Positions 22,063 through 28,634 of a DNA stretch of 64,000 nucleotides are shown here, one piece after another. Source of the stretch: an uncultured delta proteobacterium. GTDB lineage: Bacteria; Myxococcota_A; Polyangia; Polyangiales; Polyangiaceae. The DNA lies in assembly GCA_963850305.1 (NCBI GenBank), contig CAWKKR010000001.1:768001-832000 (forward strand), given 5' to 3'. Positions within the stretch are counted from its first letter, which is position 1. Each line of letters begins with the position of its first letter. Below the pieces are notes generated by a model that worked only from the letters and a program-made list of their open reading frames with translations, was not told where the DNA came from and searched no databases. Position numbers and translations under genes: made by a program.

Positions 22063-23248
22063 ATGAGCGAGCCCATCAGTGTCGATGCCCTTTCCGCCCT
22101 CGATGAACACCTGACCGAAGACGAGCGGATGGTCCGCGACACCGTGCGCCGCTCTGATCCGGGAGCGGTATTTGCCGCGCGCCGGCGACCTCTTCGAGAA
22201 AGAGGAGTTCCCGGACGACCTCATCCCGGAAATCGCCGCGATGGGTCTGCTCGGCGCGACGCTCAACGGCTACGGCTGCGCGGGAATGAGCTCCGTCCAG
22301 TACGGGCTCGTCCTGCAGGAGCTCGAGTACGGCGACAGCGGGCTCCGTAGCTTCGTCAGCGTCCAGGGGTCGCTCGCGATGTACGGCCGATCTGGGCGTA
22401 CGGGAGCGAGGAGCAAAAGCGGAAGTACCTGCCCGAGATGGCGACGGCGGAAACTCATCGGCTGCTTCGGCCTGACCGAGCCGGACAGCGGCTCGGACCC
22501 CGGCTCGATGAAGACGCGCGCGAGGCGCGACGGTGACGGCTGGGTGCTCTCGGGCACGAAGATGTGGATCACCAGCTCGCCCTTCGCGCACCTCGCGGTC
22601 GTCTGGGCGAAGGTCGACGACGGCGAGGCCGACTCCATCCAGGGCTTCATCGTCGAGCGCGGAGCTGAAGGGCTTCGAGACGCCGCGCATCCACGGCAAG
22701 ATGAGCCTCCGCGCCAGCGAGACCGGGGAGATCGTCCTCGACGAGTGCCGCGTGCCCGAGAACAATCGCGCTCCCCAACGTCCGTGGACTGAAGGGTCCG
22801 CTCGGGTGTCTGACGCAGGCCCGCTTCGGCATCGCCTGGGGCGCGATCGGCGCGGCCAAGGCGTGCTTCGACGCCACCGTCGACTACGCCCGCAAGCGCG
22901 TCCAGTTCGGCGAGCCCATCGCCTCGAAGCAGCTCATGCAGGAGCAGCTCGTCGACATGGGCTCGGAGATCATCAAGGGCGATCTCCTCGCGCTCCACTA
23001 CTCCCGCCTGAAGGACGAGAAAGGCATCAGTCCCGATGCAGGTCTCGCTCTGCAAGCGGAACAACGTCGGGCACGCCCTCGCCATCGCGCGCACCTGCCG
23101 CGGCATCCTCGGCGGCAACGGCATCCTCCTCGAGTACCCCGTAGTGCGGCACATGCTGAACCTCGAGAGCGTCTACACCTACGAAGGCACGCACGAGATC
23201 CACACGCTGGTGCTCGGCAAGGCGTTCACCGGCTACGACGCATTCTGA
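22063..23248 (+). pseudogene. Glutaryl-CoA dehydrogenase-like acyl-CoA dehydrogenase with about six frameshifts (sequencing error or pseudogene)
   Basis: Motifs DSGLRSFVSVQGSL, GCFGLTEPDSGSD, GTKMWIT and YEGTHEIH are spread across frames. Shifts lie near 22153, 22387, 22451, 22663, 22770 and 23035. Confidence 0.8.
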
Positions 23249-23393: not shown

Positions 23394-24017
23394 TCAGGGA
23401 CAGCCCACCACGCCGGCGTTCAGCGAGGGGCAGAGCCCGGCGCACGGGGCGCGGCTCGTGCAGCAGTCCAGCGAGTTGAACTCCGTCGTTGCCGGCGCCG
23501 AGCCGACGGCGCACGCCGCGCACTGGAGCGGGATGATGCAGCTCTCCACGCAGACGACCATGCTCCAGCAGGCCGGGTCGGCCTTGCACGTCACGGTCTC
23601 CTGCTGACAGTGCTGCGTCGCGCACGCCGCGCACTGCGCCGAGACGATGCCACCCGTCGGGAAGACGATGGGAGCGACCCCGGCTTCTTCCAGAGGTGGC
23701 GTTGCAGCATCTCGTCCTGCCGATCCCGCGTCGGGGTTGCCGCCGAAGGAGGCTCCGCCGATTGGCTCCTGACCGCCGGCCCCCGCTCCGCTCTCGACGC
23801 CACCGAATCCAGCGCTCCCGCCGAATCCAGCGCTCCCGCCGGAGGCCGGCGCGCCCGCCCCGGCCCCGCCGCCGCCCGATGACCCGCCGAAGAGGTTCCC
23901 GGTCCCCGCCGAGCCGCACGCGAGCACCTGCACCGCGCCGAGTACGAGCACTGTTCCGCGAAGCCCCGCGCCTCGCCGCGCGCTCGCGCCGCGAAGGCTC
24001 GCTGCATCACGGCCCAT
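23394..24017 (-). CDS. Cys-rich lipoprotein
   Basis: VLAC lipobox, Gly-rich linker, and a C-terminal CxxC...C Cys-rich domain. Confidence 0.7.
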   Translation of the reverse strand: MGRDAASLRGASARRGAGLRGTVLVLGAVQVLACGSAGTGNLFGGSSGGGGAGAGAPASGGSAGFGGSAGFGGVESGAGAGGQEPIGGASFGGNPDAGSAGRDAATPPLEEAGVAPIVFPTGGIVSAQCAACATQHCQQETVTCKADPACWSMVVCVESCIIPLQCAACAVGSAPATTEFNSLDCCTSRAPCAGLCPSLNAGVVGCP

Positions 24018-24106
24018 CGGCCAGGAGCCCCTTTGACCTGCGAAGAGCTGGAGCATACCGAAGCTGGCCGCGGCCAGTAACCAGAACGCTACTCGGTTTC
24101 CCCGGT

Positions 24107-24341
24107 GACGGCGGGGGGTTTTGTTCTTGGGGGGCGTCCCGCCCCCCGGGGCTTGCTTCGCAACCCCGCCCCCCGGTACTCGCTACGCTCGGCTCCGTGA
24201 ATCGGCTGGAGCAAGCGGGGGCAGAGACGGCGGGGGGTTTTGTCCTGGGGGGCGTCCCGCCCCCCGGGGCTTGCTTCGCAACCCCGCCCCCCGGTACTCG
24301 CTACGCTCGGCTCCGTGAATCGGCTGGAGCAAGCGGGGGCA
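24107..24341. repeat. Tandem duplication of a ~117-bp structured element (period 119 bp)
   Basis: 24107-24223 and 24226-24341 are near identical, differing only at TTGTTCTTGG vs TTGTCCTGG. Each copy has an internal CGGGG-CTTGCTTCGCAA-CCCCG hairpin. Confidence 0.95.
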
Positions 24342-24377
24342 CAAGTCGGCGGGGACCCGGACCTCGAGGCGTCTGTT

Positions 24378-24397
24378 TTCCGGACACCTGTCCGGAA
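24378..24397. promoter_or_regulatory. Inverted repeat TTCCGGACA-cc-TGTCCGGAA (possible operator)
   Basis: Perfect 9-bp arms with a 2-bp spacer, 13 bp before the 11-mer array. Confidence 0.5.
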
Positions 24398-24410
24398 GAC
24401 GAACACTCTG

Positions 24411-24504
24411 CGAACGATGATCGAACGATGATCGAACGATGATCGAACGATGATCGAACGATGATCGAACGATGATCGAACGATGATCGAACGATGATCG
24501 AACG
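24411..24504 (+). repeat. Perfect tandem array (CGAACGATGAT)x8 plus a 6-bp partial copy
   Basis: Read directly. Each junction forms a GATC. Confidence 0.97.
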
Positions 24505-24568
24505 GCACCGCGTTTGCAGCGCTCGGGCTCGGCGGTAACGCCTTTGATCGATACCCCCGAGGTCGGAG

Positions 24569-24826
24569 ATGGCGCAGGTCAGGAATAATCTGGTCGTTCA
24601 GGGTTTGTCCGGCATGCTCGGCAAGCAGCTGGTGCTGCGGACCCGCAAGAACGGGAAAACCTTCGTCTCCGCGGCCCCACGTCGCCGTGCGGACTACGTG
24701 CCGTCGGAAGCGCAGAAGAAGCAGCAGGCACGCTTTCGCGCCGCGGTCGCCTACGCGAAGGAAGCAAAGAACCGGCAGGAGTACCGGGCGGGTTTTGGCC
24801 GATTCTACCCGCCGATGTTCATTTGA
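24569..24826 (+). CDS. Small basic uncharacterised protein, possibly C-terminally truncated
   Basis: GAGGTCGGAG precedes the ATG. The Lys/Arg-rich sequence reads MAQVRNNLVVQGLSGMLGKQLVLR...GKTFVSAAP...SEAQKKQQARFRAAVAYAK. Confidence 0.75.
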   Translation: MAQVRNNLVVQGLSGMLGKQLVLRTRKNGKTFVSAAPRRRADYVPSEAQKKQQARFRAAVAYAKEAKNRQEYRAGFGRFYPPMFI

Positions 24827-24852
24827 GTGAAACTGAGCGATGATCGATCATC

Positions 24853-26178
24853 GTGCCTGAGGAGCGCGCGCAAGTGATTTCGGTCGAGGAGCGGGCGGCG
24901 CTGATGGCGGCGCCGCGGCCCCGACGCGATCTGCCGCTCGCGGCATTGTCCGCGGAAGGTGCGCGTCGCCGGTTGCCGCTCGCCGACACGGTGCGGGAGA
25001 AGGATCGCCGCGCGCGCCCCACCTCCGCCGTTTGGGAGCTCACGCTGAAATGCGATCTCGCGTGCCGCCATTGCGGATCGCGCGCCGGACACGCGCGCAA
25101 CGACGAGCTGACCACGGCGGAGGCGCTCGACCTCGTTCGGCAGATGGCCGAGCTCGGCGTGCTCGAGGTCGCCGTCATCGGTGGCGAGGCGTATCTGCGC
25201 GACGACTGGACTGCGATCATAGCGGGGATCCGCAAGCACGGGATGCAGGCCACACTGGTGACCGGGGGCCGCGGGGTGACCCGTGAGCTCGCCGAGGCGG
25301 CCGCAGCCGCCGGCCTCCAGAGCGCGAGCGTGTCCATCGACGGCGCCGAAGCCACGCACGATCGGCTGCGCGGCGTGCGTAGGTCCCATGCGTTGGCGCT
25401 CGAGGCGCTCGGCCACTTCGGGCGAGCCGGCGTGGCGTTGTCCGTCAACACGCAGATCAACCGGCTGAGCCTCCCGGATCTCCCGGACATCCTCGATACA
25501 GTGATCGGGGCGGGGGCCCGGAGCTGGCAGTTCATGCTCACGGTCGCGATGGGGCGCGCCGCGGACGAACCGGACGTGCTGCTCCAGCCGTACGACCTGG
25601 CAGTGCTGTTCCCGATGCTCAGCAAGCTCAAGCAGCGAGCGGACGCGGCGGGTGTGCGCTTCTGGCCAGGCAACAACATCGGGTACTTCGGGCCGTACGA
25701 GTCGTTGCTTCGGGAAGGGACCCTCCGGGGGCACACGGCATCGTGCGGCGCGGGCCAGAGCGTTCTCGGGATCGAAGCCGACGGCACGCTGAAGGGTTGC
25801 CCGTCGCTCACCACGGATAGCTGGGCAGGCGGCAACATCCGCCAGCACTCGCTGCGGGACGTGTGGGAGCGCGCCGCCCCGCTCCGCTACACGCGAGATC
25901 GCACCGTCGACGATCTCTGGGGCTTCTGCCGCACCTGTTATTACGCGGACGAGTGCCGCGCCGGATGCACGTGGACAGGGGACGTGCTGTTCGGGCGCCC
26001 CGGGAATAATCCGTACTGTCACCACCGAGTGCTCGAGCTCGCAGGCCGGGGGCGACGGGAGCGACTCGTCCAGGTGAGTGCCGCGCCAGGGCGTCCGTTC
26101 GACAACGCGCGCTTCGAGATCGTCGAAGAAGATTTGCCTTCGAGAGCAGTGAGCTCGAACGAGGAGACGCATTCATGA
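24853..26178 (+). CDS. Radical SAM/SPASM peptide maturase, Y_X(10)_GDL-associated / PlpX splicease-like
   Basis: VWELTLKCDLACRHCGSRAG (CxxxCxxC). SPASM region CGAGQSVLGIEADGTLKGCPSL...LWGFCRTCYYADECRAGCTWT...GNNPYCHHR. GTG 24874, after GAGGAG, is an alternative start. Confidence 0.88.
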   Translation: MPEERAQVISVEERAALMAAPRPRRDLPLAALSAEGARRRLPLADTVREKDRRARPTSAVWELTLKCDLACRHCGSRAGHARNDELTTAEALDLVRQMAELGVLEVAVIGGEAYLRDDWTAIIAGIRKHGMQATLVTGGRGVTRELAEAAAAAGLQSASVSIDGAEATHDRLRGVRRSHALALEALGHFGRAGVALSVNTQINRLSLPDLPDILDTVIGAGARSWQFMLTVAMGRAADEPDVLLQPYDLAVLFPMLSKLKQRADAAGVRFWPGNNIGYFGPYESLLREGTLRGHTASCGAGQSVLGIEADGTLKGCPSLTTDSWAGGNIRQHSLRDVWERAAPLRYTRDRTVDDLWGFCRTCYYADECRAGCTWTGDVLFGRPGNNPYCHHRVLELAGRGRRERLVQVSAAPGRPFDNARFEIVEEDLPSRAVSSNEETHS

Positions 26179-26708
26179 TTCTTGTGCCCTGTCCCGCCTG
26201 TCGCCGTCACGTGCGCCGCAGCGAGCCCGCGTGCCCTTTCTGCCACGCGACCCTCGGGTCCTCCACGAGCATTCCGGAACGCGTTCGTGCGCCGCGAAGG
26301 CGCAGCCGGGCCGCGCTCTATGCCCTCGCGGTCGCGAGCGCCGGGTCGACCGCGTGCGGTGGCGTCACCAGCGAAGCGAGCCAAGGTCGCCCGCAGCAGG
26401 GCGCCGGAGGCGCCGGGAGCGGCGGCGCACGCGGCGACGGGGGCAGCGTCGTCATGACAGGCGGCGCTCCGGGAACGGGCGGTGAGCCGCGCATCGTCGT
26501 GCAGCCGAGCACTGGTGGCACGACTTCATCCCCCGACGCCGGGAAGGACGCCGGCAGGGACGCGAACTGGTGCGACTACAACCAGTGCGGCATCTACAAC
26601 GGGCCGCCGCCTCCACGACGCGCGCCCGATGGTCGCGGAGGGTTCGTCTTCTACTTCGAGCGGCGCGACGAGGATTCCGACCTCGTGGAGGACGACGAGG
26701 CGGACTGA
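26175..26708 (+). CDS. Putative rSAM substrate: zinc-ribbon N-terminus, lipobox-like Cys, Gly-rich linker, C-terminal IYNGPPPP
   Basis: ATGA overlap with the rSAM gene. Motifs CPACRRH...CPFC, ALAVASAGSTACGG and WCDYNQCGIYNGPPPP. Confidence 0.7.
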   Translation: MILVPCPACRRHVRRSEPACPFCHATLGSSTSIPERVRAPRRRSRAALYALAVASAGSTACGGVTSEASQGRPQQGAGGAGSGGARGDGGSVVMTGGAPGTGGEPRIVVQPSTGGTTSSPDAGKDAGRDANWCDYNQCGIYNGPPPPRRAPDGRGGFVFYFERRDEDSDLVEDDEAD

Positions 26709-26929
26709 GGTCCCCACACAGCGAAGAGGAAGAAAGGCCGGCGGGTCCGCCAGCCCCCTTCGCGTCCGTGTAGGCGAAAGACCCACGTGGCACGGGCGGA
26801 AAACATTCCGCTCCGGTTCGCATGCGGCTCGGGATGCCGGATGACGGCGCGCGGCAATCGGTGGGGCCGGCGTGGACCCCCGACAGACCACGCTTGCTTA
26901 TTGGCGGCCGCCTTAGGAAGAATGCGTCC

Positions 26930-28634
26930 GTGCTTCGAAAAGCCCTCTCTTTGGCCCTGGCCGTGCTGTCGGCGCTGGTGTTGTTCGGGGCGGTCGCGGC
27001 GGCCGCGCCGAGAGACAAGGCCGCGGAGAAGAAGATCAACGAGGCCATCAACTCGAACTTCCTGAACACGGACTTCGACGGCGCGGAGGGGCTGCTCCTC
27101 GGCACCATCCGCGCTTGCGAGGACAAGTGCAGCCCCCAGGTGCTCGGCAAGGCCTGGATGTACGTGGGCATCGTCCGCGGGACGGGCCGGAACGATATGG
27201 CCGGCGCGGCGGAGGCCTTCAAGTCGGCCTTCGCGTCGGACCCGAACGTCGCGCTCGATGGACAGAATCGCGACCGATCCCGTGAAGGCGCTGTTCGCCA
27301 AGCTTCAGGCCAGCAGCGCCGCGGCCACGCCGGCGGAACCCGCGGCCCCGAGCGCTGCGGCCTTCAAGTGCGCGCCCGCGGTGACAGAAGTGCAGACGCG
27401 ACGCGCCGTTCCGCTCGAGTGCGAGACGGACGCCGAGCTCAGCTCCGCCTTCCTTCACTACAAGACGTTCGAAGACAAGGGCTGGGACAAGGTGAAGATG
27501 GCGCAGAACGCCGGAGCCTGGCGCGGCACCATCCCCTGCGCCGCGACGCAGGACACCGGCACTCTGAAGTATTACGTGGAAGGGCTAGACGCGGATGGCA
27601 ACGTCTCTGCTCTCCTCGGGAGCAAGGAGAAGCCCAGCACGGCCGACATCGTCTCGGAGACGAGCGCGGATCCCCCCGCCTACCCGGACGAAGACCCGCC
27701 GAAGCGCTGCGACGTCATCGAAAACGCGGGTTCTTCGGAGTCTTCGCCGAGCGCCGCTTCCTCGTCCTCGGGCGGCACTTGCGGAGCCTGGGGCGAGCCT
27801 TGCGGGACCGACGGGTGCTGCGCGGAGGGACTCACCTGCAACTCCGGCACCTGTGAGAGCCACTGCGAGGCCGACTCCGACTGCAAGGACGGGCAGAAGT
27901 GCGACGACGGAAAGTGCGGGGGCGGGGGCGGCGCGGGCGGCGGAGGCGGCGCGGTCAAGAACCTCGTCGGCATCCACTTCGGGATGGATCTCGCGAGCAT
28001 CTCCAGCGACGGCGCCTGTCTAGCCGGGTCGCGCGCGGACCACATTGCCTGCTTCGTGAACGGGACGACCTACGAGGGCACGCCGAGCGCCGCCGCGCCG
28101 GGTCGCATCTCAGGCGGGCTCACCGTGGCCACCATCCCAATCCTCGCGTCGTACGAGCACCTCTTCGGCCACTTCGGCCTCGAAGCGCGGCTCGGGTTCG
28201 CGTTCAACGGCGGTCAAACGCCGACGGGCGGGTCCGCCTTCGTGCCCATCCACGCCGAGGTCCGCGCCAAGTACTGGCTCCTCGGCGATGCCGCCTACAC
28301 CAAGCCCGGCATCCGCCCCTGGGTGCACCTCGGCGGCGGCTTTGCCGAGTTCGACGCGACGGTGAAGACCGGCATAGTGGACTGCCCGAACCCGACTGAT
28401 CCGAAGGTGCAGGCCGCCTGCGTGAACGTCACCGACGTCAACCAGGTCAAGGGGAACCCGACGACCGCCAACGCGACGAAGCAACTCGGCCTGAGCTTCG
28501 TCACCTTTGGCGGCGGGGTCATGTACGCCGTCGCGAAGAACCACGGCCCGATGCTCAACATCGACCTGATAGTGCCGTTCCCGTCCTCGGGCTTCGTCGT
28601 GGAACCTACGCTCGGGTACGAGTACGGGTTCTAG
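26930..28634 (+). CDS. Secreted multidomain protein (TPR-like, Cys-rich, C-terminal beta-barrel); frameshift near 27266
   Basis: Signal peptide from GTG 26930 in ORF 26822 joins ORF 27258 at ALDGQ/IATDPV. The C-terminus GYEYGF is typical of outer-membrane barrels. Confidence 0.75.

Follow-up and report, generated by a model that had tools for sequence, protein, structure and literature searches.

Among the described systems close to the locus considered here is parC of plasmid R1, a site made of 11-bp direct repeats to which dimers of the autoregulating ParR protein bind cooperatively (PMC2241845). KfrA of plasmid RA3, a protein with an HTH head and a long coiled coil, has five 9-bp repeats over its own promoter (PMC7783346).

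A comparable arrangement, an 11-bp array followed by a small gene, lies in the 64,000-nucleotide stretch of DNA analysed here (the window, C1:768001-832000) from the genome of an uncultured delta proteobacterium (G000; 6.26 Mb, 66% GC, 11 contigs); its gene content points to a myxobacterium-like organism. Judged by sequence comparison, the locus is a truncated copy of a pairing between a widespread gene and an 11-bp array. Gene and array co-occur across distant lineages with an exact 11-bp period and a loose consensus. No published description of this gene family paired with an 11-bp array was found in a search that had subscription papers and supplements outside its scope.

Organization of the locus

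The features of the locus are as follows (window coordinates).

24107..24354, no strand: a dispersed REP-like repeat of 118 bp, present twice in tandem; it belongs to the flanks and is found beside both paralogues too
24378..24397, no strand: inverted repeat with 9-bp arms and a 2-nt spacer, just left of the array
24400..24508, plus strand: 11-bp-period array of one degenerate, eight perfect CGAACGATGAT and one partial unit (from the sequence and TRF)
24559..24563, plus strand: Shine-Dalgarno-like GAGGT, 5 nt before the ATG
24569-24826, plus strand: 85-aa open reading frame, starting 64 bp after the array
24569..24790, plus strand: conserved residues 1-74, a basic DUF6266-related N-terminal domain (phmmer matches, family model)
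24791..24826, plus strand: non-conserved 11-residue tail and stop, with the third conserved helix and any Ig domain missing
24838..24853, no strand: perfect palindrome of 16 bp that has a 10-mer in common with the array
24853..26178, plus strand: radical SAM/SPASM maturase-like gene, a neighbour outside the module whose matches fall below NCBIfam cut-offs

As assembled, TRF places the array at 24411-24504, with period 11, 8.5 copies and 100% matches to the unit CGAACGATGAT; its phase reaches one degenerate unit further left, giving 10 CGAA units at 24400-24508. Such regularity is far beyond chance: at least 25 of 33 lag-11 matches were reached in 9 of 20,849 300-bp stretches of the genome (7 sites), and the window array scored 33 of 33. 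Among 32 arrays compared it is the longest and the sole 33/33 scorer, the others having 3-7 degenerate units. The sequence-only reading had described the array, the 85-aa gene 64 bp beyond it and a palindrome on either side, and all are present, although the left one is in fact two 9-bp arms around a 2-nt spacer. Inverted repeats of that type number 137 in the genome and perfect 16-bp palindromes 398, with CGATGATCGA present 97 times, so neither palindrome is remarkable alone. The right-hand one had been taken as part of the module. However, the array's own unit was found downstream of the gene no better than in shuffled sequence, as was the inverted unit near the array (32 arrays), and the palindrome at 24838-24853 is more likely due to chance or to the leader of the next gene than to a module end.

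The GAGGT motif bears out the good ribosome-binding site noted earlier. The 85-aa protein contains 7 Lys and 11 Arg versus 1 Asp and 3 Glu, and its conserved part is predicted to form a beta-meander, one long helix and part of a second helix. The suspicion that this copy is truncated was well founded, since homology is confined to about residues 1-74 and the profile match stops at position 72 of 90; 53 of the 66 complete genes reach position 85 or beyond. Because the third conserved helix is lost, the window copy is probably crippled, inactive or weak. GC3 is 0.82 in codons 1-74, 0.58 in the last 11 codons and 0.84 in the downstream radical SAM gene, which leaves little of the claim that the gene is atypical of its neighbours. 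Reading the tail as a frameshifted remnant of the ADFLHPP segment was rejected (best p 0.034 of five comparisons, profile p 0.39). No plus-strand promoter-like site was found in the window; one sigma-70-like match lies on the minus strand in the tail of the gene (24802-24831), pointing toward the array.

The module is flanked by a minus-strand cysteine-rich gene (23394-24056) and by the radical SAM/SPASM gene (24853-26178). It is absent at the three congener loci of the latter that have upstream DNA; the congeners are non-syntenic upstream of the radical SAM gene, so no empty site can be defined. Downstream of the radical SAM/SPASM gene is a gene for a protein of 177 aa whose N terminus has a Cys motif and whose body is Gly-rich (24853-26708 together). 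The same pair is found in congeners, and again on C8, there with two genes of the second kind after the first; it is possibly a peptide-maturation system. The 118-bp REP-like repeat has 26 blastn matches in the genome, 12 of them of at least 90 bp, and shorter relatives form clusters at 70-78-bp spacing elsewhere. About 1.2-2.4 kb upstream of the array an acyl-CoA dehydrogenase is split over several reading frames (22172-23248), and indel errors in the nearby assembly are therefore likely; 26822-28634 looks split in the same way. At the start of contig C1 (C1:3459-8823), an inverted duplication of several genes together with a 22-bp array is possibly an assembly artefact. About 340 bp upstream of a gene with no assigned family, for a protein of 212 aa (C8:1745141-1745776), C8 has an array of 22-bp period and 13 copies (C8:1744506-1744799), and the two may constitute a two-turn array-gene pairing. 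Further 22-bp arrays are at C1:3459, C1:7752, C1:603725 and C8:244646.

A basic N-terminal domain related to DUF6266

With the 85-aa protein as query, phmmer found 357 cluster representatives at E 0.001; matches of the best 150 are mostly confined to residues 1-78 of the query. Lengths of 180-199 aa are the most frequent (62 of 151), and most full members append an Ig-like domain to the N-terminal domain. In the model of a full member (pLDDT 95.2), a short beta-meander and three helices are followed by a seven-stranded domain resembling Ig/FN3-like folds (CopC, Z 10.5, rmsd 2.4, 88 residues aligned, with many Ig-like folds tied). Natural family forms of about 100 aa are predicted to retain all three helices. 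The N-terminal domain is basic and confidently modelled, and has no hydrophobic signal-like start. Taken alone, it gave no match with Z of at least 5 among 48,161 PDB representatives, which is not proof of a new fold, nor among 933 Foldseek-ranked chains, and no BFVD match at E 0.001. Profile searches of PDB sequences returned nothing significant, PHROGs and NCBIfam held no family for the window protein, and a word-indexed homologue search matched it to itself only. ParR is a ribbon-helix-helix binder; folds of that kind were not among the matches listed in the PDB fold searches, although the domain may still be of that kind, and its predicted topology differs. A resemblance of the N-terminal domain to a permuted HMG box was set aside, Pfam giving a single weak match (E 0.27), in a distant member.

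The gathering score of DUF6266 (PF19781) was reached by neither the window protein nor any of 62 full-length members. A relationship is nevertheless found, as the sequence-only reading had supposed: the domain profile of the window family gives 25 bits for L013, a DUF6266 protein with a 98-bit match to Pfam, and profile-profile comparison against a four-row mixed alignment gives a probability of 96.9. Atlas clusters with 11% and 23% DUF6266 members appear at scores 0.93 and 0.92. By these profile comparisons, the N-terminal domain of the family is homologous to the DUF6266 N-terminus and belongs to the same superfamily. A search for DUF6266 by name found no literature. In a quick and poorly resolved tree, the three G000 copies group with those of G222 and G500 in an 18-row group (support 87); because of the poor resolution, no donor is claimed.

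Arrays beside family genes in distant lineages

At least 168 loci yielded 163 matches and 140 non-identical genes, of which 124 were kept (start codon, score of at least 25, 300 bp upstream) and 79 were mutually less than 70% identical. An array was called at 23 or more of 33 lag-11 matches within 300 bp upstream; controls were block shuffles and, from the same loci, the upstream regions of other ORFs, which had been crudely called. The metagenome loci are the matches listed, chosen by search pattern, and the sample is thus biased toward pattern-matching genes. Among these matches listed, a lag-11 array lay upstream of 31 of 79 family genes, versus 3 of 92 control regions and 0 of 1,580 shuffles, so that homologues are enriched for upstream 11-bp arrays, as the sequence-only reading had anticipated. 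By subtraction, 29 of 76 remain when the three genes of G000 are removed. Other lags in the 79 genes gave one array (lag 10), none (lags 12 and 13) and 13 (lag 22); lag 7 gave 7, from unrelated heptamer repeats.

The unit consensuses of 32 arrays align to a loose motif of CGAAGGATGAA or TATAGGATGAT type, which the window unit fits; the information of the motif is 6.47, versus at most 5.53 in 15 shuffled sets. Units stand in the orientation of the gene in 25 arrays and inverted in 7. The window unit is 9/11 identical to the array units of three metagenomic homologues (L101, L089 and L161), and the window array is likely the cognate site of the 85-aa protein. The more nearly identical two family proteins are, the more similar their array units tend to be (rho 0.25, Mantel p 0.0005, n=32). 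Of 60 genes with both flanks, 22 have an array upstream only, 9 downstream only, none on both sides and 29 on neither (p 0.011); 6 of the 9 downstream arrays begin within 6 bp of the stop codon, and 4 of the 9 cases fall in one clade. The correlation between unit and protein and the upstream/downstream split may reflect shared descent alone. Arrays that lie on either side, and never on both, are less easily understood as promoter operators than as loading sites placed near the gene. Two genes that are 96% identical (L088 and L129) keep the array while the surrounding repeat elements differ, and L069, 95% identical to L129, has no upstream array. The seemingly exact, cassette-like gene boundaries in these three loci were set aside, being explained by repeat turnover in the flanks.

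These data bear on an alternative that we regard as unlikely, in which the array serves some other regulator acting in trans as its operator, or tunes a promoter as a minisatellite, and the small protein is no more than the regulated product. Such a regulator would sit well with the position of most arrays, up to about 300 bp upstream, with one consensus over distant lineages, as for a host-factor site, and with the arrays of genomes in which the family gene was not detected. It accounts poorly for the arrays downstream of genes, so often abutting the stop codon; moreover, no regulator gene is conserved nearby, and the G655 paralogues L017, L021 and L028 carry different units.

Paralogues and arrays without a gene

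G000 contains two paralogues of the window gene, at C6:41236 (69% identical) and C4:379985 (61%), both with helix 3 kept and the Ig domain absent. The C4 paralogue has a degenerate 11-bp array upstream in opposite orientation and the C6 paralogue has none; in total, 2 of the 7 lag-11 sites of the genome lie upstream of its three family genes. No family gene accompanies at least four G000 arrays with five or more units, one of which is made of the exact window unit; the scan found none at periods 10, 13 and 14. Three gene-less arrays (C1:702841, C2:30023 and C8:247032) have about 100 bp of flanking sequence in common, with inverted ends, like an array-carrying MITE. Another (C8:60160-60235) is preceded by sequence resembling that before the C4 paralogue and is possibly a relic after gene loss; beside it stands a gene pair that, by eye, we take to be a likely PIN/AbrB toxin-antitoxin.

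Among relatives the family gene is rare: counting G000, it was found in 2 of 401 order genomes and in 2 of 301 phylum genomes. Upstream of the copies in G222 and G500, by about 300-350 bp, short phased motifs can be made out by eye that score under the array cut-off. A distant subtype that contains Trp and is about 105-115 aa long is encoded at three G500 loci (L010, L011 and L012), with phased and partly mirrored CTCCGT-type motifs upstream; the weak HMG-box match (E 0.27) was obtained in this subtype. The strict TCGAA array pattern is present in 4 of the 401 order genomes; G152, G085 and G315 have it without a detectable family gene, and 11-bp arrays of this kind can therefore exist without the gene.

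The gene-less arrays of G000, including the three with shared flanks and inverted ends, and the REP-like repeats adjoining all three family genes of this genome are what would be expected if the arrays were selfish MITE- or REPIN-like repeats collecting in shared repeat-rich intergenic hotspots, with a link to the gene that is positional and not functional. BrickBuilt offers a precedent, being a minisatellite inside a MITE (PMC4596501). We nevertheless hold this explanation to be quite improbable, since other genes in the same loci seldom have arrays (3/92), the period stays at 11 despite sequence divergence, the unit follows the protein, the array outlasts turnover of neighbouring repeats, and no HUH tyrosine transposase/RAYT was found among 95 neighbours (Pfam, E 1e-7).

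Gene neighbourhoods, viruses and plasmids

The neighbours of family genes are heterogeneous, the sole cluster that reaches four loci being tandem paralogues, and a Pfam scan of 95 of the 114 nearest neighbours gave mixed cellular functions with two integrases. No conserved third gene or regulator was found near family genes and no replication, packaging or extrusion gene recurred there; a ParM-type NTPase was found neither in the window nor among 95 of the 114 nearest neighbours. Two queries of 50,697 phage records and one of 72,556 plasmid records found no family member, and three scans of viral contigs gave a single match. This viral-contig copy (L178:5751-6053, the L095 locus) is a 100-aa gene upstream of a DUF2586 gene, with a TTCG-phased array downstream by eye; the 270-aa gene on its other side may be capsid-like.

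The sequence-only reading had proposed a self-contained mobile cassette and a filamentous-virus capsid context. The former finds no conserved neighbour or recombinase and no common ends, and the latter is confined to the single viral-contig match; as no partner gene is conserved and the family hardly occurs in viral or plasmid collections, both ideas lack support. Capsid proteins of Adnaviria (SIRV2/SIFV-type) are small, basic and helical and wrap DNA. A family protein of this kind, a capsid-like coat that nucleates on the array, encloses DNA in filamentous particles and displays the Ig domain on their surface, would match the coat-protein build of a basic helical domain with an optional Ig domain, an array on either gene side as packaging or nucleation signal, and the A-form period of 11 bp. 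We consider it very improbable in view of the neighbourhoods and the phage, plasmid and viral-contig searches above. Nor does an 11-bp period imply A-DNA, as had been suggested, because the repeats of R1 parC, an ordinary plasmid operator to which ParR binds, are 11 bp long as well (PMC2241845). In the fold searches, the SIFV chain 6wq2_A came 20th (Z 3.8, rmsd 5.6, 52 residues aligned), tied with unrelated helical proteins.

The least probable proposal takes the repeats, as part of the gene's own transcript or of a flanking one, to be an RNA site through which the bound protein regulates translation or decay: the prevailing orientation of the units and the AGGATG contained in many of them, which resembles repeated GGA protein-binding motifs, are outweighed by the 7 inverted units of 32, a window unit without GGA, a strict helical period that matters for duplex DNA and not for single-stranded RNA, and the absence of any Rfam family at threshold.

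A possible mode of action

Our preferred reading, drawn by analogy and on which our judgement is evenly balanced, is that the family encodes a cooperative DNA-binding protein with its own repeated site, which would act like parC-ParR without belonging to that system. We infer that the family protein binds DNA, with the N-terminal domain presumably reading one repeat per subunit or dimer. Proteins bound to the repeats side by side would form a short protein-DNA filament on the array. An 11-bp step on 10.5-bp DNA amounts to about 17 degrees per subunit, so that 3-8 units would form a one-sided, slowly twisting strip; this strip would lie on one face of B-DNA, as ParR does on parC (PMC2241845). 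The Ig-like domain, where present, would face outward and join subunits or partners. The array would be a loading site needed near the gene but on either side, own-promoter repression would be a side effect where the array is upstream, and gene-less arrays could be outposts that are silenced, bent or bridged by the same proteins. As the window copy is without helix 3 and probably inactive or weak, the C4 and C6 paralogues would supply any activity in G000.

A bolder version, which we regard as possible but doubtful, is a new class of minimal genetic element, distributed over bacterial phyla and made up of one small protein with a private 11-bp array, in which the protein would polymerise from the array into an Ig-studded DNA coat, gene-less arrays would dock it and paralogues would have their own repeat codes. 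Docking of the coat at gene-less arrays would then silence, protect or export DNA.

Comparison with known systems

A large uncharacterised family has a probable binding site adjoining its gene, so a simple binding assay can assign its function. If paralogues read different 11-bp units, they would offer a natural set of orthogonal protein-DNA pairs, and a layer of chromosome organisation or silencing in Bacteroidota and in other lineages. The pairing would further account for intergenic repeats of a class for which no reader is known. The window copy itself is mainly evidence of the sporadic reach of the pairing into myxobacteria-like genomes, with decay.

The family proteins are small, basic and helical like the capsid proteins of Adnaviria, but no viral gene context was found. 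DUF6266 (PF19781) has a homologous N-terminal domain, and the DUF6266-sized L037, L040 and L049 carry 11-bp arrays too; unlike DUF6266, the window family has a C-terminal domain that is an Ig fold of about 95 residues or is absent. Dispersed intergenic repeats, some with inverted ends, are shared with REPIN-RAYT and BrickBuilt (PMC3116915, PMC4596501), and a master gene beside its cognate repeat is shared with REPINs (PMC3116915). The partner here is not a tyrosine transposase, however, and the repeat is a phased direct array and not a hairpin doublet (PMC3116915). Similarly, a helically phased direct array differs from the 23-nt minisatellite of BrickBuilt, a MITE which resembles only the gene-less copies of the array (PMC4596501).

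Like KfrA of RA3, the family combines a helical DNA-binding protein, here a predicted one, with a short-repeat site adjoining the gene, but its period is 11, its loci were found outside plasmid records and its site need not lie on the promoter side (PMC7783346). The differences from parC-ParR are a predicted protein of beta-meander, three helices and optional Ig domain, the absence of a recurring ParM-type or other NTPase neighbour, and no plasmid occurrence found. There is also usually one run of repeats, which may be downstream, and not two around a promoter (PMC2241845). With these differences, the pairing is still like that of R1 in placing 11-bp direct repeats, in runs of about five in parC, beside the gene of a small protein (PMC2241845).
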